From Candidatus Latescibacterota bacterium (lineage in GTDB: Bacteria; Latescibacterota; UBA2968; UBA8231): a stretch of DNA of 64,000 bases. Below the pieces are notes generated by a model, which saw nothing but the letters and a program-made list of their open reading frames with translations, did not search any database and was not told where the DNA came from. A program made the translations under genes and the position numbers. The number at the start of each line of letters is the position of its first letter. Positions within the stretch are counted from its first letter, which is position 1. Below are positions 7,478 through 45,012 of this stretch, piece after piece. The stretch lies in NCBI GenBank assembly GCA_965248265.1, contig CBDFJF010000002.1:2016001-2080000 (forward strand), in the 5' to 3' direction.

Positions 7478-7742
7478 CGGTGGAAGCCTTTCGGTGGTCA
7501 GCCATCTTGGTGATCAATTCATCATCGTCGGCGCTCGCCATCACCAGCTCGTAAAACGCGTCGGACGAAATCTCCGCTTCCTCCAGGAAGCGCTCGTCTG
7601 CCCCTCACGGGAATATGTAGTCCCCGAGCCGGCCGGCCTTGAGTGCACGGACCTTGTCTGAAATCCGCGCCAGCCACGGCATGTCGCCGATGACGAGGCC
7701 CCGGGCGCGTGGTTTGAAATCCAGGTTGTCTGATTCGCTCAT
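7470..7742 (-). CDS. DUF5069-like small protein, candidate selenoprotein (Sec at codon 46); absent from the ORF track
   Basis: MSESDNLDFKPRARGLVIGDMPWLARISDKVRALKAGRLGDYIFP(U)GADERFLEEAEISSDAFYELVMASADDDELITKMADHRKASTDG; in-frame TGA at 7605-7607; fills the operon gap exactly and overlaps the aminopeptidase start by 8 bp. Confidence 0.75.
7564..7598 (-). promoter_or_regulatory. Bacterial SECIS-like hairpin
   Basis: mRNA after UGA: GGGGCA GACGAG CGCUUCC-UGGA-GGAAGCG GAGAU UUCGUC; apical loop starts 19 nt after UGA with G at loop position 2. Confidence 0.65.
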
Positions 7743-7744
7743 GA

Positions 7745-27935: not shown

Positions 27936-29150
27936 GTGAGTGAGTCAGATCGAGGTCTTCGCAAGATAGTCATCTCCCTCTACGTGCCGACGCTGCTGAT
28001 GGGGTTCTGCGGTGCACTGGTGGTACCGATTCTACCGCTGCTGGCCCTGTCTTTCGACGTGTCGTATGGGATGACTGGCGTCGTTCTGGCTGCACCCGGA
28101 ATCGGTACCCTGATCTGTGACATGCCGGTGGGCACACTCGTGCGCCGGATCGGCTATCGGTGGGGAATGCTAGCCGGTGGGAGCGTCATGTTCGTGGCCG
28201 CCCTGGCCGTGTTTACCTCAACCAGTATCGTTGAGCTTTTCATCTATCGTCTGTTCACGGGAGTCGGGCTGACGCTGTGGGGCATATCGATCCAGGCCTA
28301 TCTGTACGAGTCCATCGGACAGGCGCAACTTGGCCGAGCAAGCGCCCTGATAGGTGGCATTTATCGGTTGACCAGCTTCGTGGCCCCCGCCCTTGGTGGG
28401 TTCATGGGAGAGGCGCTCGGGCTACGCTTTCCGTTCCTGCTCTATGCCGTCCTATCGTTGGTGAGTCTGGCCGTCGTTTTCGCGTCCGTGCCCAGGCCCG
28501 ATCTCGGGAATCGTAAAGTCAGGGATGAACGTTCCGGTCGTTTCAGAGACCACCTCAGAGCGAATCTGCGCATCGTACTGCGCGGCGGACCGGGCTACGC
28601 CGTCGGGCAGATCACGCGCACGTCCCGCAATGTGATAATCCCGCTATTCGCAGCGGAAGTGCTTGGACTCAGTCCCTCGTCGATCGGCCTGGTAACGAGT
28701 CTGTCGTTCGGAATAGACCTGATCATGGTATATCCAGCAGGAGTGATCATGGATCGCTGGGGTCGAAAGTTTGCCTATGTCCCCAGCTTCTTCCTGCAGG
28801 GAATGGCGCTGTCAATGATTCCGTTCACCACGAGCTTTGTCGAACTACTCGTCGTCGCCATGGCCCTCGGTTTTTCCAATGGCATCGGAGCTGGGACAAT
28901 GCTGGCGCTGGCCGGAGACCTGGCTCCGGAGAAAGGACGCGGGGATTTCCTGGGCATCTGGCATTTCGTGGGAGACGTTGGCGGGACAAGCGCCCCATTG
29001 ATCATGGGCAAGGTTGGTGATCTGGCGGGTCTTGGTGCCTCAGCGTTCGTGGCGGGAGCATCAGGAGTATTGGCGGCGGCACTATTGGGTTTCCTGGTAC
29101 CGGAAACGCTTGCAAAACCCGAGAAGGGAGATGGTCCTATCAAGGGCTGA
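27936..29150 (+). CDS. MFS transporter
   Basis: About 12 TM helices; GVIMDRWGRK motif A. Confidence 0.9.
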   Translation: MSESDRGLRKIVISLYVPTLLMGFCGALVVPILPLLALSFDVSYGMTGVVLAAPGIGTLICDMPVGTLVRRIGYRWGMLAGGSVMFVAALAVFTSTSIVELFIYRLFTGVGLTLWGISIQAYLYESIGQAQLGRASALIGGIYRLTSFVAPALGGFMGEALGLRFPFLLYAVLSLVSLAVVFASVPRPDLGNRKVRDERSGRFRDHLRANLRIVLRGGPGYAVGQITRTSRNVIIPLFAAEVLGLSPSSIGLVTSLSFGIDLIMVYPAGVIMDRWGRKFAYVPSFFLQGMALSMIPFTTSFVELLVVAMALGFSNGIGAGTMLALAGDLAPEKGRGDFLGIWHFVGDVGGTSAPLIMGKVGDLAGLGASAFVAGASGVLAAALLGFLVPETLAKPEKGDGPIKG

Positions 29151-29360
29151 CTGCAACGGTAGTAACGATGTGTACGTGGGGTTGAACACGAGAGAGGCTG
29201 CTCGCAGGTGACGGAGCAGCCTTCTCTTTTGTGGCATCCAACAAGCCAACACACCATTTTCGGAACCAGGTCCCGGTAACCTGTTGTGGCCAACTCAGCT
29301 ACAGGTCCGGAAAGTATGTGGCCATGGAGGCATCCTCTTAGCAGCAACAGGGAAGCACTG

Positions 29361-32300
29361 ATGGAAGAGAAACCAAAACGACCCAGCATCAACGGCCGGG
29401 GTGTGTGGCAACAGTTTACCATCCAAGACGGTCTTCCTGACATGAAGATCGAATGCATTTATGAGGACTCTCAGGGAATACTCTGGATAGGCACACACGA
29501 TCGAGGAGTAGTCCGCTATGACGGCAGAGAATTCCAGACCTTCACTCGTCAGGACGGACTGTCTGGTGATGGTGTATTCAGCGTCATTGAGGATGAGTCT
29601 GGTACGCTGTGGTTTGGGACCAATGGGGGAATAACGGCCATGGATGGTGGCGCCTTCGTCCAATTGGAAGGAACAGAAAGCCTAAGTTGCCTTTGGGGAG
29701 TTTGTGTCAGCGATGGTGCCATATGGTTCGGTTTGGAAAAAAAACCTGCGCAGTCGCCTGCGGTTTGCCGCGTATGGGGCAAACAGAGAGAAGTGCTGTT
29801 TGCGGAAGGTGATCCACCAGATGCAGGTGGGAGTATTCACCGTACGGTGTCTGATGGTATGGGTAGTGTACTGTGTGCCGGACAGGGCGTTTTCCTATCC
29901 AGCGATGAAAGTATGTCTTCGATCTCGAGTCTAGATTCGCTGATACATGTAAACGATATGCTTCTTCGATCTGATGGTTCAATTTGGATATCTGAATACC
30001 GGGGAATTTTCAAGTATGAACCCTCGGAGGATCGAATTGAGTGTATCTCGTCAAACAGAAACGTAGAGGCGTTGGCTGAGGACGCTGACGGTGTTGTATG
30101 GCTTTGTGGAAACAATGGAAAGTTGTGGTCTTGGGATCCGGTAGCCGGTTTTGAGGAGAAGCTAGACCTCGATGCTGTGTTTTGGCGTGGAATGATATTT
30201 GACCATCGAGGTCGGCTGTGGATCGGATCTTACGGATCGGGTCTGGTCTACTATGAGGAAACGAGGATACAGGTTTTCGGTTGCGCGCAAGGATTGCCCA
30301 ATGAACGAATCAGGAATGTTGCGTTGGACAAAGATAAGCGAGTATGGGTCGGCACTGAGTCAGGTTTGGCGGTCGTTGGCAATTCTTCGATTGAACCTGT
30401 TGGTGCACAGCTTCTCGCAGAAGAAAAGATTTCAAGCTTGGAAGTGGATCGGTCGGGCCGATTGTGGATTGGCACACGAGCCGGACACGTGATTACATAT
30501 TTCAACGGTGAGTTTACAGAGCAGGAAGCGGTCCGGGAGTTCGAGCGATACAGTATTAGCAAGTTGGCGGTAGACTCACTTAATCGAGTTTGGTTCGCTT
30601 CTCGCCATGGCCTCGGATTCGGCTACTACGATGACGGCATAGTGCAACACTATCCCGCTACACAAGAGGAGAACTATCCCACATGGGTCGGTGCAATGGC
30701 TGCGGACAAAGATGGACACATATGGATCGGTTCCGCCGAACCAAGTAAATGGAGCGGGCTATGTCGCGCAGGCGATTCAGAGCTAACCAGATATCCCTTG
30801 GCAGAGGCATTGCCTATTTCATCTCTGTGTGTTGAGGATCAAGTGGTCTGGATCGGTTCAAGCGAAGGGTTGTTTTCGTTGCACAGACGGACAGGAAGTT
30901 TATGCAAGACAACACAACGGCTTTCGTGCCAGATCGTAACCGCCATTACTGTAGCCAGCAACGGAACCCTGTGGATAGGTACGGAGGGGGGTGGCGTAAA
31001 TCATTACGATGGGACCACTGTTCAAGCCATACAGATCCCAGGCGATGTCCAGCGCAACGTTATCAACGACATCTGCGAAGATGTCTTTGGTGATATGTGG
31101 ATTGCTACCAATTGCGGGTTGGTGAGGTTCCAGAGGACGAGGATGCCTCCATCCGCCGAGATTCTAAGTGTTCTTGGGCAAGATGAGCAAAACGGTTCCG
31201 AAGAGGTCCGGGCGTACAAGGCGGGGCGAGAGATCACCATCAGGTTTTCTGGATACAGCCCTGACGAGCACACCTCCCACCTAACATTTCTGTACCGCCT
31301 TGTCGGCTGCGAGGACGATTGGAATCAAACGGATGAGACAAGTGTAAGCTACGCTGGCCTAAAGCCTGGCTCATATCGCTTCGATCTTCGAGCTGTTGAC
31401 CGTGACTTGAACCGGTCAGAGATCGCTTGTGTCGAGTTGAGTATTGCACCGACGCCCATGGATGTTGCCTTGAATGAGGCACTGTCAGGAGACAGCGGAG
31501 GCCAGGAGTTTATTGGTCACAGTGCATGCATTCTGGAGGTCATGGACAGGATCAAAGACGTGGCGCCGAGCGACCTAACGGTCTCGATTTTCGGGGAGAC
31601 TGGCACTGGGAAGGGGTTGATCGCCAGAGCCGTACACGCGCTGAGCGATAGAAAATTAGGGCCTTTCGTTTCCGTGAACTGTGGCGCGTTACCCGAAGGC
31701 CTTGTAGACAGCCAACTATTCGGTCATGAACGTGGGGCATTCACCGGTGCGTCTGCTCGGAGAGTGGGCAAGTTCGAGCTAGCCGACAGCGGTAGTATTT
31801 TCTTGGACGAAATCGGAGATCTGCCAATTGAATCCCAGGCAAGGTTGTTGCATGTCCTTCAAGAGTTGTCTATCGAGCGAGTTGGCGGTAGTCGGCAGAT
31901 TCCCGTTAGTGTGCGGGTTATAGCTGCAACCAACCGAGACTTGCCTCAAGCTGTTCAGGAAGGGTATTTCCGAGAGGACCTATTCTATAGGTTGAACGTT
32001 TTCGCCATCGAAATGCCACCCTTGCGAAGGCGTCGAGAAGACATAGGTGAGCTAGCAGAGTTTTTTGTAGCACGATTTGCGGAACATCTGAATCAACGGC
32101 CGCCCAAGATCTCCAGCGACGCGATGAAGATCCTAACTGGATATGAGTGGCCTGGCAACGTGCGCGAGCTGGAGCACATGATGCAACGAGCTGTCTTGTT
32201 GGCGAAAAGTGACGTCATCCAGTTAGCCCATCTTCCTAGTGTTGCTGAAGAACAGATTGCAGATCAAGGTAGCCTCGTGATACAGCCTTGGGCTGCCCAC

Positions 32301-32450
32301 GAGCGTCGCTATCTTGAGCAAGTTCTCGACCAAACAGAAGGTGTTATTTATGGTGACAACGGGGCGGCAGCCCTATTGGAAATCCATCCGAATACACTGA
32401 GAAGCAGGCTAAACAAGCTTGGCATAAAGGTAAGAAAGAAAAAAGAGTAA
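29361..32450 (+). CDS. Sigma-54 enhancer-binding protein 1: two-component-regulator beta-propellers, Y_Y_Y, AAA+, HTH (no TM)
   Basis: Repeated D..G.LW.GT blades; YRLVGCEDDW...YAGLKPGSYRF; GETGTGKG, FGHERGAFTGA, FLDEIG, YEWPGNVREL; HTH GAAALLEIHPNTLRSRL; start chosen by alignment to the paralog. Confidence 0.92.
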   Translation: MEEKPKRPSINGRGVWQQFTIQDGLPDMKIECIYEDSQGILWIGTHDRGVVRYDGREFQTFTRQDGLSGDGVFSVIEDESGTLWFGTNGGITAMDGGAFVQLEGTESLSCLWGVCVSDGAIWFGLEKKPAQSPAVCRVWGKQREVLFAEGDPPDAGGSIHRTVSDGMGSVLCAGQGVFLSSDESMSSISSLDSLIHVNDMLLRSDGSIWISEYRGIFKYEPSEDRIECISSNRNVEALAEDADGVVWLCGNNGKLWSWDPVAGFEEKLDLDAVFWRGMIFDHRGRLWIGSYGSGLVYYEETRIQVFGCAQGLPNERIRNVALDKDKRVWVGTESGLAVVGNSSIEPVGAQLLAEEKISSLEVDRSGRLWIGTRAGHVITYFNGEFTEQEAVREFERYSISKLAVDSLNRVWFASRHGLGFGYYDDGIVQHYPATQEENYPTWVGAMAADKDGHIWIGSAEPSKWSGLCRAGDSELTRYPLAEALPISSLCVEDQVVWIGSSEGLFSLHRRTGSLCKTTQRLSCQIVTAITVASNGTLWIGTEGGGVNHYDGTTVQAIQIPGDVQRNVINDICEDVFGDMWIATNCGLVRFQRTRMPPSAEILSVLGQDEQNGSEEVRAYKAGREITIRFSGYSPDEHTSHLTFLYRLVGCEDDWNQTDETSVSYAGLKPGSYRFDLRAVDRDLNRSEIACVELSIAPTPMDVALNEALSGDSGGQEFIGHSACILEVMDRIKDVAPSDLTVSIFGETGTGKGLIARAVHALSDRKLGPFVSVNCGALPEGLVDSQLFGHERGAFTGASARRVGKFELADSGSIFLDEIGDLPIESQARLLHVLQELSIERVGGSRQIPVSVRVIAATNRDLPQAVQEGYFREDLFYRLNVFAIEMPPLRRRREDIGELAEFFVARFAEHLNQRPPKISSDAMKILTGYEWPGNVRELEHMMQRAVLLAKSDVIQLAHLPSVAEEQIADQGSLVIQPWAAHERRYLEQVLDQTEGVIYGDNGAAALLEIHPNTLRSRLNKLGIKVRKKKE

Positions 32451-32469
32451 CACCTCGTGTTGACCTGGG

Positions 32470-32600
32470 TCACGGCATATGGTGATTCACGAGGTTGAGC
32501 ACGAAATATCGTGCACACTCTTCCGCGAGTGTATCCTGTAGATAGTTCAGTAGGTTGCTAAAAGAATTTGTATAGTAAGGTCACGACATTTCGTGACCTT
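32470..32600 (+). promoter_or_regulatory. Three palindromic enhancer (UAS) sites, CACGA-N4-TCGTG type
   Basis: TCACGG-CATA-TGGTGA 32470-32485; GCACGA-AATA-TCGTGC 32499-32514; AAGGTCACGA-CATT-TCGTGACCTT 32577-32600. Confidence 0.75.
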
Positions 32601-32693
32601 CGCTCTGGTCCGGTTCATACCCATTTTGTCAGTTTCATGGCAACCGTTTGTTTTGGCTCATCTTGCGATGATTCTCCTCACAATCAGCTTGGT

Positions 32694-32709
32694 TGGCCCA
32701 ATCCTTGCA
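32694..32709 (+). promoter_or_regulatory. Sigma-54 (-24/-12) promoter
   Basis: TGGCCCAATCCTTGCA, exact GG-N10-GC spacing, 37 bp before the AraC regulator ATG. Confidence 0.8.
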
Positions 32710-32746
32710 ATATCGGCAACCAAACCAATGAGAAAGTGAGGATTCG

Positions 32747-33466
32747 ATGCGCCCCAAAATCATCATTGCAGATAGTGAACTAGATTACTTGCCAAACGTC
32801 AGGACTGGAATCCTGGCTGGCTGCCACTTCGTCCGTGCAGCAAGCGAAGACGATGTGATGACTGAAATGCATGCTGCACCCGGCGCATGTCTTCTCTTGA
32901 TCGATTCTGGCAGAACCGAAGACAGTTCTTCAAAGCTGCTACGGAGAATCAAGGAGAAAGGGCGTCGCAGCAGCAAGGTGGTTTGCACTGCCGAGAATCC
33001 AACTGTTGAGCTTGTTATCGCCGCTTTTAAGGACGGCGCTTGTGATTTCATCCCAAAGCCAGCTTCACACAGCGAGGTGCTTTCCACCGTTCAAGCTCTG
33101 GTCCATTCCGCCGAAAGAATGCCGAGTTACTGGGCGCGTCGACTCGACGCATATCTGATTGACAACTTGTCCAATCCCGATCTCAACCTCGCATTCTTGC
33201 AAACACACTTCGCCGTGTCGAAGAGTTATCTTTCAAAGCTCTTCAGGTCTGAGATCGGCGTGCCATTTCGAGACCGGTTGATGAGATTCCGAATGCTAAA
33301 AGCAGCTAAGCTTATCGAAACTACGGACCATCCGATCTACCTGGTTTCATACCATTGTGGATTCCGAAGTCAATGTCGGCTTACTGAGGCATTTACGCGT
33401 TATCATGGACTCGGGCCTCGAAGATATCGTGAGGCACACAGATCTCAATTTTCTCGTTCAAACTAG
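32747..33466 (+). CDS. Response regulator with REC and AraC HTH domains
   Basis: IIIADS...LLLID...GACDFIPKP receiver; SKSYLSKLF...RMLKAAKL...CGF...F.R.HG..P..YR AraC. Confidence 0.88.
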   Translation: MRPKIIIADSELDYLPNVRTGILAGCHFVRAASEDDVMTEMHAAPGACLLLIDSGRTEDSSSKLLRRIKEKGRRSSKVVCTAENPTVELVIAAFKDGACDFIPKPASHSEVLSTVQALVHSAERMPSYWARRLDAYLIDNLSNPDLNLAFLQTHFAVSKSYLSKLFRSEIGVPFRDRLMRFRMLKAAKLIETTDHPIYLVSYHCGFRSQCRLTEAFTRYHGLGPRRYREAHRSQFSRSN

Positions 33467-33581
33467 AAGCACCCCAAGGGGATCTCTCTCTGTAATTGGT
33501 TGCTCGACGTTTCCTCCCGTCGTACCTTTGCGGAATGACCGCATTTGCAAGGCCAATTCGCATTAGGCAGACGACGAATAC

Positions 33582-36500
33582 ATGATGAAACCCGAGGCTC
33601 GTCCATACCACAGGGGGATATGGGAGCACTTTACAGTGCAGGACGGCCTTCCAGACATGAAGGTCGAATGCGTGTACGAGGACTCAAGGGGGGTGCTCTG
33701 GGTGGGAACGCACAACCGCGGATTGGTCCGGTACGATGGGGATGACTTTCAAGCGTTTACTACCAGAGAGGGTCTTTCTGGAGACGGAGTTTACAGCATA
33801 ATTGAGGATGAATCCGGAACGCTATGGATTGCAACCGATCGCGGTTTATCAACTTTCGACCAGGAGAATTTCCACAATGTCGATGTTGGTGTTGACTGTG
33901 GTTTCCTCTGGGGTGTTGACAGGGATGCTAAAGGCAATTTGTGGTTCGGGCTGCAACGCCGGCCAGGTTTACCTCCTGCGGTCTGCCGGGTAACAGAAAA
34001 TGATTGCAACATTGTTGTTGTGGACGAGACCGACGAGGCATCAGGGACAAGCATCCATTGCATCAGGACCAATCCAGAGGGCAATGTTTGGGTCGGCGGA
34101 CAGTCGGGATTGTATGAAAGCGAGTTTGATGGACGTTTTTCCCCTCTGAAGCAAGAATGGGACGTTTACGTCGTCGGCGACATACTCCCGACGGGGTCAA
34201 AGGGTATGTTGGTTGCAGCATACAACGGTTTGTGGCGGTTGGGGGATGGGGCTGCTGAGCATTTGCTTGCTGAAAGCGATAGTGGTCCAGTTTCATTAGC
34301 CCACGTTGATGATGATGTCTTCATGGTTTGTACGTATGACGGGCGCTTGCTTCGCGTTCTTGGGGACGAGGTGCAGCTGATTCACCATCTGAATTCCGTC
34401 CACACGGGAGGATTTGTATTTGATAGTGAGGGAAGATTGTGGATAGGTACGTATGGGTTGGGTCTGTACTGCTATGACGAAACCAGGCTTCAGATAACGC
34501 GGATGGACAGTGTTTCACCCAGCGCCTCAGTTACCTGCTTGAACACCGACTCCCACGGCGAGTTGGTTCTGGGCACTCGCCAAGGGGTGTTTGCTCTTGG
34601 TGATGCTGGTTTTTCGGCTCTCCGTAAATCTGAAACGCTTTCGAATGCCGAGATTACAGGTGTGCTGTTCGATAGTTCAGACCAATTGTGGTTGGGTACG
34701 CGCAATGGTTGGATTTACAGCCGCATTCAAGGGACGCTCAACCAGCATGAACTCGATCCGGCATTCCTCGGTTACAGTATTGATGCATTGGTAGAAGACA
34801 ACCATGGGCGAATATGGTATGGATCTCGGAGTGGGCAGGGGTTCGGCTGCATAGCTGATGGGAAGTCGGAGTTTTTTCCACCTGGTGGGAATGCCAATTA
34901 CCCATCTTGGGTGCGGGCAATTGCACGAGATCGATTGGGTGGGATGTGGCTCGGTTCTGCTTCTCCAGGGGATTGGGATGGGATTTCCAGGTACCGGGAA
35001 GGGGAGTTTGAGCAGATAAACGGGTTTTCAGGAGCAGCAATTCTGTCTCTTATGGAAGATCGCGACGGACGTATGTGGGTGGGCACGAACGAAGGCTTGA
35101 CCTGCATAGATGAAGACTATCTCATGACCTTCACGCAGAGTGACGGACTCTCATGTGAGATTGTAACGTCAATATTTCAAGCACGGAATGGGGTGTTGTG
35201 GATTGGCACTGATGGGGGCGGAATCAGCTGCTACGATGGTCAGGTGTTTCAGGCTTGGCGCGTGCCTCACGATCCAGCATGTAACGTCATTCACGATATT
35301 GCTGAAGGGCGAGATGGTGTAATCTGGTTTGCATCTGAAGGTGGTCTTATAAGGTACGAAGCAGGCCAGACGAAACCCACTGTTGATGTCGTTGAAGTCA
35401 TCGCAGATATAGCGTACCCCGTGCCTTCAGAGGTGCAGTTCCCGACGACGGTTGGAAGGATGACATTGCGATTCCGTGGAGTTAGTTCTTGCGACAGGGC
35501 GGAACACCTTGTTTACAGATATCAACTTCATGGTTACGAGAATGACTGGCAGCAAACAAAGAGTGGTCAGGTTGAGTACTATAAGTTGCAGCCTGGAGAG
35601 TACGTCTTCTACGTCCAGGCGGTTGACAGAGATTTGAACTACTCCAAACGCGCTGAGGTGCAGGTCGTAGTAACTGAAGACCCTCGTATCGAGGCTCTGA
35701 ATGATGCTCTTCGTGCAGAGGGTGCCAACGGTGAGTTCATTGGGAATAGTACGGCGCTAAGTGAGGTCAAAAGGCAAATTCGGGAGGTTGCTTGGACCGA
35801 TTTGACAGTGTTAGTGCTTGGAGAGACCGGCACCGGCAAGGGATTAGCGGCACGCGCGATTCATGATTCCAGTGAGCGCAACGAGCAACCGTTTATTCAC
35901 GTCAACTGCGGGGCTTTGCAGCACGGGCTCGTCGATAGCGAGTTGTTTGGGCACGAACGAGGAGCTTTCACTGGAGCTATCACTAGAAAGCTAGGGAAGT
36001 TCGAGTTGGCAGACAAAGGGACCATTTTTCTCGACGAAATTGGTGACCTCCCACTTGAGTCTCAAACGAGGTTGTTGCGGGTCTTGCAGGATCGCTGCAT
36101 TGAACGGGTAGGAGGCACCCAAACACTATCAATTGATGTAAGGGTGATCGCTGCTACAAATCGAGATCTCGTTGGTGCTGTGCGCGGAGAGAAGTATCGT
36201 GCTGATCTCTATTATCGGCTGAACGTGTTTCCTATTCGAATACCTGCACTCCGGGAGCGACAAGAGGATACGCCTCAGTTGGCTGGGCATTTCGTGAAAC
36301 GTTTCGCTGCCCATTTGAACCAAACCGCTCCGCGCATCAGTGATGCTGCCATGCAAATGTTGATGTCATACAGCTGGCCCGGGAACGTGCGCGAACTAGA
36401 GCATGTTGTGCAGCGAGCAGTGATTCTGGCGAAGGAGCAACAAATTGAACCTGTTCATATCGGCATTGGTCCTCCAGCGACGATAGTTCAAAGTGAGGAT

Positions 36501-36690
36501 CTGGCAGAGTTCCTCCCTCTACGGGAGCACGAAAAGCGCTATCTGGCGAAGGTGCTTGAGTTTACGGGGGGGGGTAATCCATGGGAAGCGCGGTGCTGCG
36601 CAATTGCTGAATATCAAACCCACAACCCTGCGGAGTCGACTTGAGAAATTGGGATTGATGAAAACCAAGCGCGTAGCGAAAACCAACTAA
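33582..36690 (+). CDS. Sigma-54 enhancer-binding protein 2 (paralog of EBP1), frameshifted in a G9 tract just before the HTH
   Basis: Same architecture with intact GAFTGA; removing one G from 36566-36574 gives FTGGVIHGKRGAAQLLNIKPTTLRSRLEKLGL* (stop 36690), matching the EBP1 HTH. Confidence 0.9.
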
Positions 36691-36723
36691 CATAGTGGCA
36701 ACCCATCAGAGCCGAAGCATTTG

Positions 36724-36850
36724 TTACGATATGTCGTAAAATCAACATTCGTTACTATATATCGTAAGTTATTACGTAACATGTTGACATGTATTCAATT
36801 ACACTAGAAAAAGGGATGTATGCCATAGAGTAATTTACGACATGTCGTAG
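36724..36850 (+). promoter_or_regulatory. Three palindromic enhancer (UAS) sites, TACGA-N4-TCGTA type
   Basis: TTACGA-TATG-TCGTAA 36724-36739; TTACTA-TATA-TCGTAA 36752-36767; TTACGA-CATG-TCGTAG 36835-36850. Confidence 0.75.
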
Positions 36851-36912
36851 TTCCCAGGGGGGCATAATACTACATCTCGCCTTGGTTAATATCGTATAAC
36901 TCATTGTTAATA

Positions 36913-36946
36913 AGTCGTTTGAGGTATTCCTCAGGCGACTTTTTTT
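36913..36946 (+). terminator. Intrinsic terminator directly upstream of the sigma-54 site
   Basis: AGTCGTTTGAGG-TATT-CCTCAGGCGACT followed by T6. Confidence 0.7.
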
Positions 36947-36949
36947 GTT

Positions 36950-36965
36950 TGGCATACATCTTGAT
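36950..36965 (+). promoter_or_regulatory. Sigma-54 promoter (variant -12, TTGA) of the peptide operon
   Basis: TGGCATACATCTTGAT; 115 bp from the third UAS versus 113 bp at the paralogous promoter. Confidence 0.65.
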
Positions 36966-37032
36966 ATAACACAATTAGACGAAGCGACATTCGCTAAGCG
37001 GTTAAGGCAGGTCCATCTCTTAGGAGGAAATC

Positions 37033-37251
37033 ATGAGTTTCAGATCGATAGCTGACTGGTGTGCGAAAGGTATGGCAGTAGTTGGTGCAGTTGCTTTGGC
37101 GGGCAGCGTTGGCGCAGAAGCATCCTCACATGAGGCGGCGTTGAGCCAAGACTCCTCGCTCTATGTGCCTCAAGCAGATGTCTCAGTTGGGTACGTGGTA
37201 GCAGGTGATTTCGATTCTGATGGCGGCGGGAATCCGCCTAAGCCTGAGTAA
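37033..37251 (+). CDS. 72-aa secreted precursor-like peptide, copy 1
   Basis: AGGAGG RBS; Sec-like signal ending AEA (residue 30); C-terminus YVVAGDFDSDGGGNPPKPE. Confidence 0.9.
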   Translation: MSFRSIADWCAKGMAVVGAVALAGSVGAEASSHEAALSQDSSLYVPQADVSVGYVVAGDFDSDGGGNPPKPE

Positions 37252-37359
37252 CACTGAATCTTCTCGAATCTCACCGTGTTAGATGTTCTGCGCCTGCAGG
37301 TCGGGCGAAAACTGTTACGATTTTCGCGGACAGGTGGGTCCATCTCTTAGGAGGAAATC

Positions 37360-37578
37360 ATGAGTTTCAGATCGATAGCTGACTGGTGTGCGAAGGGTTT
37401 GGCAGTAGTTGGTGCAGTCGCTTTGGCAGGTAGCGTTGGGGCAGAAGCATCCTCACATGAGGCGGCGTTGAGCCAAGACTCCTCGCTCTATGTGCCTCAA
37501 GCAGATGTCTCGGTTGGGTACGTGGTAGCAGGTGATTTCGATTCCGATGGCGGCGGGAATCCGCCTAAGCCTGAGTAA
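37360..37578 (+). CDS. 72-aa secreted precursor-like peptide, copy 2
   Basis: Identical to copy 1 except M14L; 7 of 8 nucleotide differences are synonymous. Confidence 0.9.
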   Translation: MSFRSIADWCAKGLAVVGAVALAGSVGAEASSHEAALSQDSSLYVPQADVSVGYVVAGDFDSDGGGNPPKPE

Positions 37579-37984
37579 CCGACGGCTTAATCTTCTTCGG
37601 TATCTACCGTGTTAGATGCTCTGCGCCAGCAGGTTGGGCGAAAACTGCTAAGATGGGGCAGGCAGTTGCATCAATATTCGACGGCGCTTGATCTGCGGCG
37701 CGAGCATCTTACGGTCCTTGTCTTCTTCCACGGATACTCTCTCGCTCACACAATCAGGCCTCTCGTAGTCGCTCGCTCGTTGCGCGACCGAGGTTATCAG
37801 GTCGTTCTGGCCGGACGTGGACCTCATGCGGTTCGCATTCGGGAGGAAGGCTTTCGTGTGTACGATGTGGAAACGCTCCCGCAGGACAGGATGGATCAGT
37901 TCGTCGCTCGTGGCGACTACATGTACTATGACTATGAATGGGTGGATAGATGCGTTTGATACTCCCCCGGAAAAATGGACACCG

Positions 37985-38854
37985 TCAAGCAGCAAGTTTG
38001 GTTGAATGCTGCTCGAATGCTGCGGGTGTTGCGTAATCCAGGGTGGAATGACTCCTTTCTCGATTGTAAAAAATCTCGATGTAGTCGAACAGGCTGCGAT
38101 ACGCGGCCCGGTAGTTGAGCCAGTGTTCGTGGTAGGTCAACTCGGTCTTGAGCAGATGGAAGAAGGACTCAGCCACGGCGTTATCCCAGCAGTCGCCCTT
38201 ACGGCTCATACTCTGCACAAAGCCGTGTTTGCTGACCCAGTTAGTGAACGCGGTGCAGGCGTATTGAACGCCGCGATCGGAATGGATGATCAGACCCCTC
38301 GGCGGACGACGTTGAGCTACAGCCCGCTGCAGCGCGACCAGCGCCACGCGGTGATCCAGTGCCGAGCTCAACGCCCAACCCACCACGCGCCTGGAGTACA
38401 GGTCGATGACGACGACCAAATACAACCAGCCGCGACCGACGCTGAGGTAGGTCAGGTCGCTGACCCACACTTGATTGGGGCGCTGTGCGGTGAAATCGCG
38501 CTGCAAACGGTTCGGCGCCACCGCAAATCGATGTTGCGAGTTGGTCGTCACCTTGAAACGGCGTCGCACAATCGAACGCAGACCCAACACACGCATGCGC
38601 CGTGCAACGCGATTCTCGCCCACCTGCCAGCCTCCGTCTATCAGGGCGCGGGTGATCTTTGGGCTACCGGAGCGCCGCTTGCTGGCTTCAAACAACTTGT
38701 TGATCTCGACATCCAGTCGCCGAGTCTGCTCAGCTCGAGGACTGATCGGGCGCTGCTGCCAGGCGTAGAAACCGCTACGCGACACCCGCAGCACGCGACA
38801 CAACATAGTGACCGGGTACATCGCCTTCTCCACCTCGATGAAGCGATACCTCAT
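37985..38854 (-). CDS. IS3 transposase OrfB (DDE/rve)
   Basis: WVSDLTY, IDLYSRRVVGW, HSDRGVQY, SRKGDCWDNAVAESFF. Confidence 0.96.
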   Translation of the reverse strand: MRYRFIEVEKAMYPVTMLCRVLRVSRSGFYAWQQRPISPRAEQTRRLDVEINKLFEASKRRSGSPKITRALIDGGWQVGENRVARRMRVLGLRSIVRRRFKVTTNSQHRFAVAPNRLQRDFTAQRPNQVWVSDLTYLSVGRGWLYLVVVIDLYSRRVVGWALSSALDHRVALVALQRAVAQRRPPRGLIIHSDRGVQYACTAFTNWVSKHGFVQSMSRKGDCWDNAVAESFFHLLKTELTYHEHWLNYRAAYRSLFDYIEIFYNRERSHSTLDYATPAAFEQHSTKLAA

Positions 38855-39138
38855 CTGGACTCGTTGGCGAAGAAGGCCGCCGCCTTTTTTAGGATATCTC
38901 GTTCCTGGGACACCCGCGCCAGCTCACGCCGCAAACGGCGGACCTCCTCGTCGTGATCACCTAAATGGCCGGTACCTGGGAAGGCTTCATCTCCTTGGAC
39001 CTTCAATTCTCTCTTCCAACGACTGATAATGCCTGCACTTAAACCCAATCGTTGCTCGACCCCTCGGGCCGATACCCCTTCTTCTGCGGCCAGGCGAATG
39101 GCCTCGAGCTTAAACTCACGATCATACTTGCGTGACAT
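38851..39138 (-). CDS. IS3 transposase OrfA (HTH) with an A6G -1 frameshift site
   Basis: MSRKYDREFKLEAIRL...ERDILKKAAAFFA; AAAAAAG at 38884-38890 on the minus strand; GGAGG RBS. Confidence 0.93.
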   Translation of the reverse strand: MSRKYDREFKLEAIRLAAEEGVSARGVEQRLGLSAGIISRWKRELKVQGDEAFPGTGHLGDHDEEVRRLRRELARVSQERDILKKAAAFFANESR

Positions 39139-41410
39139 AAGAACACCTCCTGCCAGAAATTTAACTTGGCGCTTCGAGGTGTCCACTCTCTTGGGGAAGT
39201 ATCAGTTCAGTCCGAGCGCCTGCTGCTCAAAATGCTCAAGCCCCAGTTCGTGATTCATGACATGAAGCCGACGGCGGCGATTAGCGCTCGCCTCGAGGGG
39301 GTCGATGACGCGAAGATAACTCAGGCTTACAACCAGCCGGGTTACTCAGAGGTCATCCATCTCCCAGACTGGTTTTCGACTGAATCTGGACCTTTCGACG
39401 AATACCTCGCTGATCATGCCTGTGAGGCGAGCGCACAGCAATCCTTCTGCATGCTGGCCGACATCCCTGAGTTCCACCCCAACGACGAGGAAGCGGGTGG
39501 ATACCACTATGTCGGTCCCTTACTCGATCAGCCCGCCGAACCCGAGCATGTAGAGTTACTTGATGCCGATTGGGACCAGTCGCTGCCTCTTGTCTATCTG
39601 ACGTGCGGAAGCAGCGGACGATCGCCCGACTATCTGGATGATTTCATCGCGGCGGTGAAAGACCGTCCCTTTCGGGTCCTGATCACGACGGCGGGTCGGT
39701 GGACTGATTCCAATGAGGGGGCGGCGTTGCCGCGCAATGTGCGCGTTACCGATTTCGTCCCGGGGGAGTGGGTTCTGAGGCGAGCACAGATGATGATCGG
39801 GGTCGTCGGTATCGGCTCGATCTACCAGGCTCTCGGAAATGGTGTTCCCGTAGCCGGCGCGCCGGAGCATCTCGATCAAGAGTACCACCTGAATCGTGTC
39901 GAAGCGCTGGGTTTGGGTGCCAAACTGGACCGTCGGGATCTCGGCACAACGACCCTCATCGATGCGATCGAATCCATGCTCGCGAATCTCAAGGGCTTTC
40001 AAAAGCGCTGTGCCGTTTTCTCGAGCGCCCTCAAGGGATTCGATGGCGCCAGTCGGGTTGCCGACCTGGTGGACGCTCATTTTATATCCCGGAACAAGGC
40101 CTATAGAGTTGACCAGTCCGAAATGGTGACGGCCGAGGAGTTCCTTCACTACCTGAATCACACAACCCCGCCGGAACTGTCACGGGAAGAGGTGAGCCGA
40201 ATTCTGCAGAATGGGTTGCGCAGCGGGATTCCACATTGCCGCCAGAGCAAGCGTATCTATTTCGACCATTTGGACAGCTGGAATTGGCTGTATGACAACG
40301 AGCCGGCCTTTTTCGAGGCCGATTATCGGGCCTCAGAGAACAAGCGGCGCCAGTTTTTCGCCAGCAACAACGGCCACGTGCGCTGCCTCGAGGCTTGGCA
40401 ACGATTCCAGGTGACTTACCAATACAGGATCTTCCCTCGACCGCCGGCCGAGTACAGGCCGCTGGCGCCGGGTCAGCGACTCAAGCTGTTCATCCCCTTC
40501 CCGATTCACAAACCCGGACATCAGATCGACGTTGAGCTCAAGTCGTGCTCATCCGAGGCCATGGTCTCCTCTTTCGTGCCTCAACTCGGATTCATGTATG
40601 GCTTCGAGAGCGAGGTGCACTCCGACTCCAGGCCGCTGGAGTTCAGTTACAGCTGTGAACTGAGTGTTCGTGAGCAGGGTACGGGCGAAGGAGAACGCGA
40701 GCTCACCGAAGCGGAGCGTCACGGCAATCTGGAAGTCGACCCCGAGATCGCGCGGCTTCCGGAAGTGATCCAGTTCAGGCAACGGTTGGCCCCGGCGGAT
40801 GATAGCCGAGCTGCCATGGCGCGCGCCATCTATGATGAACTGGCTCGGTCGAGGCGCTTTCGCAAAACGAAGGACCGCTCTCACAACATGCTTTACTGCA
40901 CCGCCTCGATTCTGAGCGGCAAGAGTGGCCACTGCGTGACGATGTCACGCGCCTACATGGCTCTGTGCCGCCTCGAGGGCATACCGGTCCGTGAGATCTC
41001 GGGTGCACTTGCAGGCTATCCGTCGGGAAATGGCGGGTTCCAGATGAAGACCTATTGCGAGCCGGTCTTCGGACATACCTGGGTTGAGATCTTTCTGGAG
41101 GGGGAAGGGTGGATGCCTGTGGAGTTTCATTCCATCGTCATCGGTGAGCAGGCTCTCACCAAGGGCAACGTAACCGACGACGTTACCAGGGCCCTGGTGG
41201 CTGAGAACTCAAAGCGGTATCACGACTACTACTTCGGCAATCTGGACAATCACCGCCTGGTGTGCTCGAACTCCGTCAAGCAGATCCCACAGGCCATGGT
41301 CGAAGACCCCACGTTGCCCCTCGACCACGATGATCATTGGTCCCCGGCGCACGATCTGCGCTATGACTGCTCGCTGCAGTTTACGAAGGTGTGAGCGCGA
41401 GAGGACAGGC

Positions 41411-42505
41411 ATGGTCGATATCAGTGTAATCATCCCGACATACAATCAAATGGAGCGGCTGCGTCTGGTGCTTTGCGGCCTCGAGAATCAGCGTCTGGAG
41501 TCGTCACGCTATGAGGTCATCGTCGTCGACGATGGCTGCACGGACGGTACACCGGAGATGGTAGCACAGCGCATGGCGGATGGGGATTGCGGGAATCTCA
41601 GCCTGATTTCTGCCAATCCGAAAAAGGGTCGCAGTGCGGCGCGCAATCGGGGGCTTGAGGAGGCCACGGGTGATGTGGTCGTATTCCTCGACGGCGACGC
41701 TCTTCCCGCACCGGATCATCTGGAGCGGTTCGCACAGGCGATTGAGGACCACGGTCCCCAATGCCTGCTGTGCGGCATGCAGTACAGCTTGCCCGAGCTC
41801 GAGTTTTTCAAGGATCCGCAGAGTGGGGCGCTATATCCGGATGTGCCGGTAGCCAGCGTCGTCAAGGATTACGTGGGCCTGCGTCGCCAGGAGCTCATCG
41901 TCACGGAGGAGATGATCATCCGCGATTTCGACGCCATCCGGTCAAGGGCCAAGGAGGGCGGCTACCCCTTCGAAGAATCGAAACGTCGTCAGGAGGAGGC
42001 ACGCGCGCTGCTGTACTCGCGACCCGATGCCGAGAGCACCTGGTTGGCTTTCATTCCGCACAACGGCGCCGGACCCAGACAGCTACTGTTGGAGGCGGGC
42101 GGATTCGACGAGGAGATCCCGTTCAGCGAGGGGTGGGAACTCGCCTATCGGATGCGGCGGGAGCACGGTTGTGACATTCGCTGGGTCCAGGCGGACACCT
42201 TCCATCTGTACCACTACCACCCGTTCCTGGACCCTGAAGGGGGAAAGCGCGAAGGGCAAATCCGCTATCGCGCCATCGAATACATGGTTGCCAAGCACGA
42301 TGATGAGCGCATCCGTCTTCTCTACTTCTGGTACGCCCACCTGTGGCCTGATTTCTACATCCCGCAGGAGGCCGTCGTTCAGGATCTCGTTCATTTCGAC
42401 CAACTGTACACCGATCTGTGCGCCGATACCTGGCGTCAGCACCAGGTGATTCTCGAGCACCATCCATCCCAATTTCTGAAACAAGCGATTGAGGCTGTGA
42501 TATGA
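41411..42505 (+). CDS. GT2 (GT-A) glycosyltransferase
   Basis: ISVIIPTYN, VIVVDDG, GRSAARNRG, FLDGD, GGFDE, HLYH; start ATG 41411 after GAGGA. Confidence 0.9.
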   Translation: MVDISVIIPTYNQMERLRLVLCGLENQRLESSRYEVIVVDDGCTDGTPEMVAQRMADGDCGNLSLISANPKKGRSAARNRGLEEATGDVVVFLDGDALPAPDHLERFAQAIEDHGPQCLLCGMQYSLPELEFFKDPQSGALYPDVPVASVVKDYVGLRRQELIVTEEMIIRDFDAIRSRAKEGGYPFEESKRRQEEARALLYSRPDAESTWLAFIPHNGAGPRQLLLEAGGFDEEIPFSEGWELAYRMRREHGCDIRWVQADTFHLYHYHPFLDPEGGKREGQIRYRAIEYMVAKHDDERIRLLYFWYAHLWPDFYIPQEAVVQDLVHFDQLYTDLCADTWRQHQVILEHHPSQFLKQAIEAVI

Positions 42506-43728
42506 TCCAGACAAACGGTACTCTCAAGGAAAAACAGCTCATAGAGGCACTGGAGCTGCACGAAAAGGGGGATGACCGTCGCGGTCTGGCCCTCGACTGC
42601 TATCAGCTCGGCGTCATTCACCAGGACGGGGGCCGCCTGGAGAGCGCCGAGCGTCTGTTTCGGCGGGCCCTGGTGCTGTGCGAAGCGCTGCAGGACATCA
42701 GTGGCGCGGCGGCGGCGCATGCGCGCTTGGGTCTCTTGTTCGAGATCTACGGCGACACCGGCCAGGCGAGGTTCTTCCTGGAGGAGGCTTGCCGTATGCA
42801 CCAGGCCGCGGAGGACAGGTCCGGCCTGGCGAGCGACTACGGGTATCTCGGCTTTATCGACTTCATCGAGGGTGATCACGCGTCGGCGGAGGAGCGTCTG
42901 CGTGAGGCGTTGCGCATGAATGAGCAGCTGGGGAACGAGGCTCGCGCTGCCGAGGACATGGGGAACATCGGCAATGTCTACCTAGCCAAGGGTGATTTCG
43001 AGGAGGCGGAGACGATGTATCACAAAGCCCTGGCGCAATACGAGAAGCTCGGCGATCAAAAAGGAATGGGCAGTCTGTATCGGAGTCTCGGACGACTGTG
43101 GCTGGAGCGCGATGATCCCGAGCAGGCAAAGGTGTTTTTCGAGCTCGGTCTCGGGTTGCACACGCAAGTGGGCTGGGTGCTGGGAGAGGCGCTACAGCAT
43201 GATGGCATTGCCCTGGTGTACGAACGAACCGGTCTCGCTGATAAGGCGGAGGAGTGTTACCAGCGAAGTCTGGAACTGTTGCGCGAAACCGGGCATCGCA
43301 CCCAAATCGCTCGAGCGCAGACGCAGCTGGGTACTTTGCGCGCGACCCGTGGAGAGCTGGACGGAGCCTGTGATTCGTTCGAAGAGGCCCTCGAGCTTCA
43401 CGAGCAAATCGGGGATTACAGCGGCGTGGCGTACGCCTGCAGGCGACTCGGGACGATCTACTTGAATCCTGCCAACCCCGATCTCGAGCGCGCTGAGCAG
43501 ATGTACCAAAAGGCACTGGGGATTTATCGCGAGCAGGGGGACGAACGTGGCGAGGGAGCGGTTTTCTCCGGATTGGGAAATCTGGCAGCCCGTCGTGGCG
43601 ATGTCTCGCAAGCCATCGGTATGTGGAAGGTCGCATCAGAACGGTTCAAGAAACTTGGCATCGTCGATCAGGTAGAGAAGCTGGATATCGCCATGAAGCA
43701 GATCTGGTCGCGCGGCATGGTCGCGTAG
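42502..43728 (+). CDS. Stand-alone tetratricopeptide repeat protein
   Basis: Consecutive ~40-aa repeats (A..Y..LG..Y...GD...A...Y..AL) over the whole length; ATGA coupling to the GT2. Confidence 0.9.
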   Translation: MIQTNGTLKEKQLIEALELHEKGDDRRGLALDCYQLGVIHQDGGRLESAERLFRRALVLCEALQDISGAAAAHARLGLLFEIYGDTGQARFFLEEACRMHQAAEDRSGLASDYGYLGFIDFIEGDHASAEERLREALRMNEQLGNEARAAEDMGNIGNVYLAKGDFEEAETMYHKALAQYEKLGDQKGMGSLYRSLGRLWLERDDPEQAKVFFELGLGLHTQVGWVLGEALQHDGIALVYERTGLADKAEECYQRSLELLRETGHRTQIARAQTQLGTLRATRGELDGACDSFEEALELHEQIGDYSGVAYACRRLGTIYLNPANPDLERAEQMYQKALGIYREQGDERGEGAVFSGLGNLAARRGDVSQAIGMWKVASERFKKLGIVDQVEKLDIAMKQIWSRGMVA

Positions 43729-43743
43729 AAAGAAGAAACCATC

Positions 43744-45012
43744 GTGACCTATCAGGATTCTTCCGGAACAAGAGCCGTCGGATACCGTGAGGTGTTGCGT
43801 GTTGTCACGCGACTTATGCGGGATCAGATCTGGCGCATGGACCGTCCCGAGGACTGGCAACGTGCGCTCACAGCCCTGATAGACGCGTTGAAGGCGTTGC
43901 GTATTCCATTCGACAGTTGTGACCTGCACCATGTCGATTCGGCGAGTGAGGCTCCTGCCATTCCGCACCTGTTCTCGTGGAGAGACAATCGCTGGCGTCA
44001 AACGGTTGTGGGAGAGGACAGGGACACAATTTCACAGATATGGCGACGTGGAGAGCCCGACCATCGAACCGACGTCGCTGCCGTCGACGCGCACGACCAG
44101 GGCGACATTTTGAGGATGCGGCATGGCTATGCCATCCGCTCGGCACTCGACGTTCCATTCGCCAACGGAGTTCTGTCGCTCTACAGCAGCTCCGCAAACG
44201 CGTTCTCGGAACGCGATATCGAGATGGTTATCGAACTCGCCGAGGGCCTCGTTACCCTGTACAACCGTCTCGATGATCTCAAAGAGTTGGAGGCCAAGCA
44301 ACGGCAGGTAGAGCAGGCACAGCGACTCGAAATGGTGGGGCAGTTGGCAGCCGGCATGGCACACGAAATCAACAACTGTCTGTCCGTCATTCTGGGGCAG
44401 AGCGAGTTGCTGCTGCTGGACCAGCTCGATCCGGGCGTTCGCGAGAGTGTCCAGCTGATTTCCAAAGCCGCCGAGGGAACCAAGTACAGCTCGCGGCGAT
44501 TGTTGGATATGGCGCGAGGACAGGAGCCTGAGCGGGCGCCGATCGATCTGAACACCCTGGTCATGGAATCGGTCGAACTCGTGCGTCGGCAATTCAAGCG
44601 AGAGGAAATCGAGATAGTCGATGAACTCGGTGCGGGGCTACCGCTCGTCAACGGTGAGCCGACTCAACTGCAACAGATCGTGATCAATCTGCTGCAGAAC
44701 GGTCGGGACGCGCTCAGGGGCAGAAGGCGATCGGGGCTTATTCGAATTCGGACACGGCGACTCGACAACAGGGTGACGCTGTCGGTCGAGGATGACGGGC
44801 CCGGCGTTCCCGAGCGCATCCGTGATAGAATCTTTGAACCCTTCTTCAGTACCAAGGAGAAGGGCAAGGGGACTGGTCTCGGTTTGAGTATCTGTCAGAC
44901 CATAGCTCACAACCACAGTGGCTACTTAAGACTTGAATCCTCATCCCGGGGCACCTGCGTTGTCCTGGATCTGCCTATCGCAGACAAGGCAGCATTGCAG
45001 GCGTTCAACTGA
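43744..45012 (+). CDS. Cytoplasmic sensor histidine kinase (GAF-like, HisKA, HATPase)
   Basis: RSALDVP..GVLSL.S...NAFSERD GAF-like; [33 protein letters not shown]; no TM. Confidence 0.9.

Follow-up and report, generated by a model that had tools for sequence, protein, structure and literature searches.

A duplicated activator–enhancer–promoter cassette and a likely two-tier sigma-54 cascade in a Candidatus Latescibacterota bacterium

We analyzed a 64,000-nt stretch of DNA (the window) from Candidatus Latescibacterota bacterium (assembly GCA_965248265.1, contig CBDFJF010000002.1, positions 2,016,001–2,080,000, + strand). The window encodes two sigma-54 activator paralogues, EBP1 and EBP2; the dyad sets downstream of each were named UAS1 and UAS2, and the −24/−12 sites that follow were named P1 and P2. 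We consider it likely that the region is a two-tier sigma-54 cascade, formed from a duplicated cassette of activator gene, three-dyad enhancer and −24/−12 promoter. In related loci, the geometry of the cassettes is kept and recognition-helix class agrees with dyad class.

The proposed mechanism is as follows. In each cassette, the three-dyad enhancer would lie just 3' of the activator's stop codon, with the promoter about 108 bp further on. EBP1 is predicted to be a cytoplasmic one-component activator with a double beta-propeller sensor, whose dimers would occupy three CACGA-W-AT-W-TCGTG dyads. With two subunits each, three such dimers would make up the six-membered active ring. Acting from a distance, EBP1 would open the sigma-54 holoenzyme at P1, leading to transcription of RR-AraC (a receiver-like domain joined to an AraC-type helix-turn-helix, HTH) and EBP2 as one operon. 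EBP2 probably needs a second signal, having its own sensor domain; it would activate P2 by binding three TACGA-W-AT-W-TCGTA dyads, located in the 3' tail of the EBP2 transcript. P2 would drive one or more small secreted peptide genes and an operon for a glycosyltransferase-transglutaminase, a family-2 glycosyltransferase (GT2), a TPR protein and a histidine kinase. A terminator between UAS2 and P2 is expected to halt read-through from P1, such that the output operon would depend on active EBP2. The two channels would be separated by a single base pair per half-site (dyad position ±7), presumably read by the residues that start the recognition helix: H-P-N versus K-P-T.

Organization of the Two Cassettes

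The two cassettes comprise these features:

29286–32450, + strand: EBP1, with N-terminal Reg_prop beta-propeller, Y_Y_Y, AAA+ and Fis-type HTH domains (Pfam, motifs, hydropathy)
32471–32484, unstranded: UAS1 dyad 1, CACGGCATATGGTG, degenerate, two mismatches to CACGA-N4-TCGTG
32500–32513, unstranded: UAS1 dyad 2, CACGAAATATCGTG, exact
32582–32595, unstranded: UAS1 dyad 3, CACGACATTTCGTG, exact, extending to AGGTCACGA-N4-TCGTGACCT
32694–32709, + strand: P1, sigma-54-type site TGGCCC-AATCC-TTGCA, 52 nt 5' of the RR-AraC ATG
32747–33466, + strand: RR-AraC, first gene after P1 (Pfam)
33582–36644, + strand: EBP2, paralogue of EBP1, whose frame departs from the HTH at G9 (Pfam, alignment, motifs)
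36566–36574, + strand: G9 homopolymer, one surplus G relative to the HTH-encoding frame
36574–36690, + strand: out-of-frame EBP2 HTH segment (VIHGKRGAAQLLNIKPTTLRSRLEKLGL...), helix IKPTTLRSRL (reading-frame analysis)
36725–36738, unstranded: UAS2 dyad 1, TACGATATGTCGTA, exact
36753–36766, unstranded: UAS2 dyad 2, TACTATATATCGTA, one mismatch
36836–36849, unstranded: UAS2 dyad 3, TACGACATGTCGTA, exact
36912–36951, + strand: intrinsic-terminator-like hairpin and T-run, ending at the P2 −24 element
36950–36965, + strand: P2, sigma-54-type site TGGCAT-ACATC-TTGAT with a non-canonical −12 (pattern, position, conservation)

The original prediction, made from the letters of the window, had placed three palindromes and a −24/−12 site after each activator gene, and we found all of them where it had put them. 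Measured from centre to centre, with the last distance taken from dyad 3 to the GG of the −24 element, the spacings were 29/82/107 bp in set 1 versus 28/83/109 bp in set 2; the values given earlier (29/82/113 and 28/83/115) describe these distances as well, counted from start to start. An alignment of the UAS1/P1 and UAS2/P2 intergenic regions kept the dyads and the −24/−12 sites in register, and little else was common to the two.

Exact ACGA-N4-TCGT cores occurred six times in the window, and four of the six fell within the two intergenic stretches; Markov shuffles averaged 1.32 such cores, and none of the 300 reached six. Over all of the DNA examined (517,359 nt), the refined motif ACGA-N-AT-N-TCGT matched exactly 26 times, 25 of them inside modules. 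Together, these shuffles and matches rule out chance as the source of the dyads. Two further cores in the window, at 56443 (CACGATCCGTCGTG) and 49253 (TACGATGACTCGTG), are exact or hybrid, lie in coding DNA and lack the central AT; these were taken as chance occurrences. For scanning whole genomes, the dyad motif can be written YACGAWATWTCGTR.

We also observed that the degenerate UAS1 dyad 1 is flanked by the half-sites TCGTG (32456–32460) and CACGA (32488–32492), which make an inverted repeat, ACCTCGTG...CACGAGGT (32453–32495). As a terminator after EBP1, this repeat found no support (z = −1.67; 11 of 200 shuffles folded equally well).

The Two Activators

EBP1 and EBP2 are 43% identical across 992 residues. 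Both contain Reg_prop repeats, a Y_Y_Y domain, a Sigma54_activat AAA+ domain and an AAA lid (Pfam), and the match to PF00158 (Sigma54_activat) was strong in each (E = 1.9e-66 for EBP1 and 1.7e-67 for EBP2). The GAFTGA (residue 817 in EBP1), GETGTGK (Walker A) and DEIG (Walker B) motifs are kept in both proteins. Hydropathy revealed no membrane segment in either protein; we therefore suggest that both are cytoplasmic one-component activators. Pfam gave no Response_reg match in either, the N-terminus consisting of Reg_prop and Y_Y_Y, and the NCBIfam ntrC model scored 303.5 bits against a cut-off of 558.6. More generally, NCBIfam gave no curated equivalog at cut-off for EBP1, RR-AraC or the peptide, and the activator scores were far below. 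Judged by these domain matches, both proteins belong to the sigma-54 activator family and fall outside the NtrC response-regulator group.

The recognition helices had been read as IHPNTLRSRL and IKPTTLRSRL. Both are indeed encoded, and that of EBP2 is out of frame, owing to G9. In EBP1, the HTH_8 match (20.2 bits) was slightly below the 22-bit cut-off. A database copy of EBP1 (P0001) starts 10 codons later.

The receiver of RR-AraC is weakly conserved: in the window, the Response_reg match (22.0 bits) was below the 30.2 cut-off, and an alignment with five orthologues placed D at the acceptor position in three of the six proteins and E in that of L002, the position being gapped or unclear in L011 and L013.

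Related Loci Keep the Cluster and Its Geometry

Related loci were collected by one profile scan of genome contigs, in which an alignment of the sensor domain served as the query. The scan returned 29 loci (L numbers); the genome of the window and that of its closest relative are not among them. Propeller-type activators (propeller-EBPs) are encoded in 14 of the 29 (L001–L007, L009 and the L011–L014 region), from metagenome-assembled genomes (MAGs) of Latescibacterota and Gemmatimonadota; modules were recognizable in 10 loci (L001–L007, L011, L013, L014). A protein search likewise revealed a large propeller-EBP family, and its named members are labelled as Latescibacteria, Gemmatimonadetes or Poribacteria MAGs. 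A YchF search agreed with these labels, the best named relatives of the window being Gemmatimonadota (69%) and Latescibacterota (62%).

The shared cluster consists of EBP1, RR-AraC, EBP2, a 72–82-aa peptide, a glycosyltransferase-transglutaminase of roughly 835 aa, GT2, the TPR protein and the kinase. The order EBP1, RR-AraC, EBP2, peptide, glycosyltransferase operon was kept in L001, L003, L011, L013 and L014, and in L002 as far as a cut-off EBP2. This conserved order favors the proposed cascade, which would run from EBP1 through RR-AraC and EBP2 to the peptide operon. In these loci, RR-AraC and EBP2 abut or overlap. Other loci depart from this plan: L004, L005 and L007 have a KPT activator (see below) alone within the 6.8–10 kb examined upstream.

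The geometry of the modules is conserved as well. The spacing of dyads 1 and 2 is 29 bp in all four modules of the HPN class and 28 bp in seven of eight KPT modules (non-redundant or near-copy), L005 being the exception, with 29 bp, among those in which dyad 1 was found. Dyads 2 and 3 lie 78–83 bp apart, with the exception of the first module of L013 (L013_E1, 71 bp), and dyad 3 lies 107–113 bp from the GG in 10 of 13 modules, the others having 87, 96 and 98 bp.

Two loci contain related arrangements. In L005, a 958-aa fusion of propeller, receiver and AraC HTH (5845–8721) occupies the place of EBP1 and RR-AraC; similar fusions are P0051, P0066 and P0068. At 9300–9990 of L004, a stand-alone receiver open reading frame (ORF) without an AraC domain lies 5' of the single KPT activator gene, and upstream of it are a sigma-54-like TGGCCA-ATTTT-TTGAT and everted TCGTA/TACGA half-sites. 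This part of L004 may be an autoregulatory variant of module 1.

Helix Class Matches Dyad Class

We named the helix classes from the start of the recognition helix: HPN (HPNTLRSR) versus KPT (KPTTLRSR). HPN activators (EBP1 of the window and the first activators of L001, L002 and L003) are followed by CACGA-type dyads, whereas KPT activators (EBP2 of the window and those of L001, L003–L007, L011 and L013/14) are followed by TACGA-type dyads. The dyads had been described with a spacer of four unspecified bases; in fact the spacer is constrained, with an invariant AT at its centre in every related site. Positions 2–5 (ACGA) and the central AT are alike in the two classes.

Half-site matrices, which leave out L006 (a near-copy of L004) and L014 (a near-copy of L013), had an outer base of C in 22 of 22 half-sites for HPN, and of T in 36 and C in 2 of 44 for KPT. 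The refined scan then recovered the missing first dyads of L001, at 6058 (C/C) and 10215 (C/T), both inside the 3' ends of activator genes, bringing the totals to 24/24 C for HPN and to 37/46 T and 3/46 C for KPT. Helix class matched the class of the adjoining downstream dyads in all 12 non-redundant modules (four HPN with C, eight KPT with T); by simple arithmetic that ignores relatedness, such a match without exception has a chance of 1 in 495. A third residue tracks the classes, namely Y or H in the loop GVI(Y/H)G that precedes the recognition helix.

The activators are expected to bind DNA, each pairing with the dyads just downstream of its own gene. The original prediction, that each activator drives the next promoter, gains support from the 12 matched modules and from L004, L005 and L007, which carry T-type dyads before the peptide operon.

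We considered whether the wiring might instead be crossed or shared, with EBP2 autoregulating P1 and EBP1 acting at P2, or with mixed rings, of the kind formed by HrpR/HrpS, acting at both. Adjacency alone assigns no protein to a site, and the activators are tandem paralogues with the 43% identity noted above. In addition, the outer base is C in 3 of 46 cases in KPT dyads, and the one exact match of the refined motif outside modules is a C-type dyad (CACGATATGTCGTG; L004 7612–7625) within an unrelated ORF, in a stretch of L004 that has no HPN gene. However, no C-type module was found in the KPT-only loci L004, L005 and L007, where the peptide operon is preceded by T-type dyads, and the helix class tracks the adjoining dyad class without exception. 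Moreover, one mixed ring would need no two separately conserved site classes. We judged crossed or shared wiring to be improbable; the swapped assignment in particular is disfavored because the KPT-only loci carry T-type dyads alone.

The DNA-Binding Domain

An AF2 model of the last 75 residues of EBP1, built from a 14-row alignment, had a mean pLDDT of 80.7 and values above 90 over the HTH. Its helices span residues 23–37, 48–52 and 56–66, the last being the recognition helix; H55 stands just before that helix and N57 is its second residue. In Fis, residues at the positions equivalent to H55 and N57 contact the outermost base. The folds nearest to the model were DNA-binding domains of sigma-54 activators (2m8g, NtrC4 3e7l, NtrC4 with DNA 4fth, NtrC1 4l5e) and Fis (1etx, Fis with DNA 3iv5), with weak E-values (at least 0.19), probabilities up to 0.99 and root-mean-square deviations of 1.2–1.4 Å over 46–48 columns. 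A search of the HTH sequence against solved structures gave nothing meaningful, the best match being an unrelated phage protein (E = 0.22). The third helix is the recognition helix in this family of DNA-binding domains, according to PMC11407668.

Alternatively, the dyads could serve another protein, for instance the AraC-type regulator or a global nucleoid protein, or could be structural elements such as terminators or repeats that have nothing to do with the activators. An AraC-type gene does belong to the cluster, and UAS2 does sit within the 3' untranslated tail of EBP2. Against this, 14-bp perfect palindromes with an AT centre suit a dimeric Fis-type HTH, and AraC-type proteins generally use asymmetric sites. 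L004, L006 and L007 have T-type dyads with no AraC DNA-binding domain nearby (L004 having only its stand-alone receiver), and the dyads keep a fixed distance from the −24/−12 site. Two site classes would need two factors, and EBP1 and EBP2 are the only conserved paralogous DNA-binding pair nearby. As for structural elements, RNA hairpins formed by such short dyad stems would not be stable, and the dyads are distinct from the actual terminator. We regard this explanation as very improbable, and we retain the activators as the proteins expected to bind the dyads.

Promoters and Possible Insulation

The sigma-54 promoter has the pattern GG-N10-GC and the consensus TGGCAC-N5-TTGCW. P1 agrees with this consensus at 10 of 11 positions; P2 is GG-N10-GA and so lacks the GC at −12. 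The −24/−12 pattern itself was not enriched in the window (8 matches versus 4.96 expected; 13 of 100 shuffles reached 8), and support for the two sites therefore comes from their position and conservation. The −24 element is TGGCAY in 11 of 14 modules. Of the 14 related promoters, 7 have A, 4 have T and only 3 have the canonical C at −12. TTGAT, which had been defended in the original prediction on the ground of conserved geometry, is thus typical of the family. By position and conservation, P2 would act like a sigma-54 site even though its −12 departs from the textbook, and the counts hint that, at −12, TTG(A/T) may regularly take the place of TTGC for sigma-54 in these lineages. PMC12316311 mentions neither Gemmatimonadota nor Latescibacteria nor TTGC. 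No sigma-70-like site was found on the + strand of 29000–38000; the four that were found are all on the − strand.

Insulation before P2 had also been proposed, and the sequence is consistent with it. The hairpin at 36912–36941 (13 pairs, −19.5 kcal/mol, z = −6.43) was the top terminator-like element in 29000–38000, and because it ends at the P2 −24 element, UAS2 would sit in the 3' tail of the EBP2 transcript, parted from P2 by a terminator. A hairpin and T-run directly 5' of the second −24 also occur in L001, L003, L004 and L007. The hairpin sequences differ among the window, L001/L003, L004 and L007, and in all of them the T-run reaches the −24. No comparable terminator was found between EBP1 and P1, no hairpin 3' of the peptide genes beat shuffles, and Rfam gave no match over the whole window.

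A similar layout was observed 5' of EBP1 (29190–29250), where a hairpin and T-run after an MFS gene are followed by TGGCAT-CCAAC-AAGC (GG-N10-GC), the same arrangement as at P2; no dyads were seen upstream.

The Proposed Target Operon

Downstream of P2 lie the following features:

37033–37251, + strand: peptide gene copy 1, 72 aa, with a hydrophobic N-terminal segment and a GGAGG ribosome-binding site
37360–37578, + strand: peptide gene copy 2, 72 aa, within a 327-bp tandem duplication (96% identical)
37609–37956, + strand: 5' part of the glycosyltransferase-transglutaminase fusion gene, cut by an insertion sequence (Pfam)
37957–39204, − strand: IS3-family insertion sequence, with orfA (38851–39186, HTH_Tnp_1) and orfB (37985–38854, rve)
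39208–41394, + strand: 3' part of the glycosyltransferase (EryCIII/MGT-like)-transglutaminase fusion gene (Pfam, NCBIfam)
41330–42505, + strand: GT2, first gene of the operon remainder (41330–45012)
42502–43728, + strand: TPR protein, same remainder
43744–45012, + strand: soluble histidine kinase, end of the remainder

The peptide family (window, L001, L003–L007, L011, L013) comprises proteins of 72–82 aa that have a hydrophobic segment between a basic N-terminus and an acidic C-terminal part; in many of them the latter ends in (V/L)(S/G)Y(V/I)x(I/L/V)G...D...PP. Neither Pfam, NCBIfam nor the ESM Atlas gave a match for the peptide (best Atlas score 0.77, uninformative). The gene is single in related loci. 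In the window, the tandem duplication spans 37005–37654, with a unit of about 327–333 bp (copies 96% and 90% identical) that takes in the peptide gene together with its ribosome-binding site and reaches ~46 nt into the next gene. That next gene, for the glycosyltransferase-transglutaminase, is intact (829–848 aa) in L001, L003, L004, L005 and L013.

IS3-family elements have orfA and an orfB of the DDE type, TG...CA inverted ends and a 3-bp target duplication. The element in the window ends in TGATAC...GTATCA and has GTT on either side; its rve and HTH_Tnp_1 matches had E-values of 9.5e-28 and 1.4e-13, respectively.

Base composition varied along the region: the regulator genes (50–52% G+C) and the two intergenic regions (47% and 39%) are clearly poorer in G+C than the flanks and enzyme genes (58–60%, up to 61%).

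The soluble histidine kinase that ends the operon has no adjacent response regulator, and the first tier encodes the receiver-like AraC protein. These two could be partners, closing a feedback loop between the tiers.

Evidence Against the Proposed Cascade and the State of the Second Tier

Several observations weigh against the cascade as proposed, and we gather them here. In each set only two of the three dyads are exact, the other being degenerate. All 14 related promoters have the GG and the G(−13), a result that is partly circular because the instances were picked by a GG...TG pattern. No rpoN was found in the 64-kb window. The KPT dyads vary: the outer base is other than T in 9 of 46 cases, and in L011 and L013 one side has G, A or C. 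Because of these non-T bases, KPT appears to tolerate other bases, and one-base orthogonality may not be strict. The first-position activator of L011 (NPS helix) had no dyads when up to two mismatches were allowed, and that of L013 (KPS helix) has mixed GACGA/CGCGA sites.

The history of the association also tempers its weight. In quick LG+G4 trees, the one used for the helix-site contrasts being made without the last 60 residues, the rows with DNA contained one independent HPN/KPT contrast on well-supported branches and two on all branches, and much of the association may reflect one ancient event followed by conservation. In this tree of the non-HTH parts, the approximately unbiased (AU) test rejected the HPN proteins as one clade (p = 0.00018), and it did not reject an HPN+PPS+NPS grouping (p = 0.06), which was named after the first tree had been seen. 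The HPN proteins do not group together in the tree. Because the AU test rejects a single HPN clade, the pairing of HPN helix and site may have been maintained by gene conversion between the tandem paralogues or may have arisen more than once. In the window's closest relative (proteins P0002 and P0029), the helix of the EBP2 protein, P0029, reads NPT.

Two further observations concern the window genome itself. First, the HTH of EBP2 is encoded in the frame that follows G9, and EBP2 as assembled has no HTH. Second, the leading enzyme gene of the target operon is interrupted by the IS3 element. Because of this frameshift and this insertion, the second tier in the window genome is probably disabled or mis-assembled. 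The surplus G may have arisen through misassembly or slippage, or it may be a genuine inactivating mutation; G9 is the longest homopolymer of the window, and orthologues carry G runs of just 4–6 at this point.

It is conceivable, to a degree that we take seriously while leaning against it, that the window holds a decaying remnant: an ancestral architecture whose second tier no longer works, with no cascade here. The frameshift that cuts EBP2 from its HTH, the insertion with its 3-bp target duplication still intact, the degenerate dyad in each set and the tandemly duplicated peptide gene would all fit such decay. On the other side, the frameshift falls in the longest homopolymer of the window (from a 4.14-Mb contig), a typical spot for assembly errors; both activator frames are otherwise intact for about 1000 codons with their catalytic motifs kept; and four of six dyads are exact. 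Decay would touch present function alone, and the two-tier architecture is not contradicted by it.

Discussion

Little has been mapped of how sigma-54 activators select their enhancers, or of how transcription factors become insulated from one another after duplication. This locus offers a natural minimal pair, in which the same fold, dyad and geometry are combined with a difference of one base pair and two or three residues, kept across deeply diverged uncultured bacteria. Specificity-swap experiments are thereby easy to design, and the parts could serve as orthogonal components of tightly off sigma-54 circuits. The analysis also gives a first regulatory logic for the conserved peptide/glycosyltransferase-transglutaminase/GT2/TPR/kinase operon of Latescibacterota- and Gemmatimonadota-like bacteria, and it draws attention to what may be a departure from the textbook −12 across the lineage.

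More broadly, and only tentatively, propeller-EBPs may form an undescribed multi-phylum family of cytoplasmic one-component sigma-54 activators that travel as a gene-enhancer-promoter cassette. Under this proposal, cassette duplication would have yielded two orthogonal channels in series, and the change from C to T at ±7, together with those from H-P-N to K-P-T and from Y to H, would be a minimal specificity code for a Fis-type HTH. A literature search for propeller-type sigma-54 activators (regulator propeller or Y_Y_Y with sigma-54) and for this cluster found nothing.

The approach has a parallel in comparative-genomic work on EBP regulons, for example in Desulfovibrio vulgaris, where conserved palindromes beside EBP genes and upstream of conserved sigma-54 promoters were assigned to the neighboring EBP (PMC4641369). 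The part of that paper available to us mentions FlrA/FleQ and deals with other EBP families; it reports neither a propeller-EBP family nor paired site classes that differ by one base.

The sensor resembles that of Bacteroides hybrid two-component systems, which share the Reg_prop and Y_Y_Y pair and have AraC outputs; relatives of the window's sensor that are fused to a receiver and an AraC HTH are P0051, P0066, P0068 and the L005 protein described above. The Bacteroides sensors, however, are periplasmic, lie between membrane segments and feed a kinase, whereas the window proteins have no membrane segment and have a sigma-54 AAA+ output.

Paralogous sigma-54 activators are known elsewhere. The sites of NifA, VnfA and AnfA differ in overall pattern and not in a single base. 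These activators of Azotobacter vinelandii likewise recognize different upstream sites and control separate operons (PMC9542535). They act in parallel and not in series, carry GAF sensors and lack the gene-enhancer-promoter layout. HrpR and HrpS of Pseudomonas syringae are, like our pair, tandem and co-evolved paralogues (PMC3105312); they form one hetero-oligomer at one promoter, whereas the window has two site classes and two promoters.

With NtrC at glnAp2, EBP1 and EBP2 share a dimerizing Fis-type three-helix domain and dyads that lie about 100 bp or more upstream of the −24, and several NtrC dimers build the active AAA+ ring, as we propose for the window (background in PMC11407668). Unlike NtrC, the window activators have no receiver; they have a cytoplasmic Reg_prop propeller and three dyads spaced at 28–29 and about 80 bp.

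In flagellar hierarchies, such as FleQ to FleS/FleR of Pseudomonas and FlrA to FlrB/FlrC of Vibrio, one EBP activates a sigma-54 operon that encodes the next. The proposed cascade would be alike in its logic, leading from a first activator to the promoter of the second activator's operon and then to the output genes. The flagellar pairs differ in that they are not tandem close paralogues, their second member is a phosphorylated response regulator and their sensor domains are of other kinds. Their binding sites are unrelated, whereas those of the window are one base apart; and their output is flagella, whereas that of the window would be the peptide/glycosyltransferase operon.

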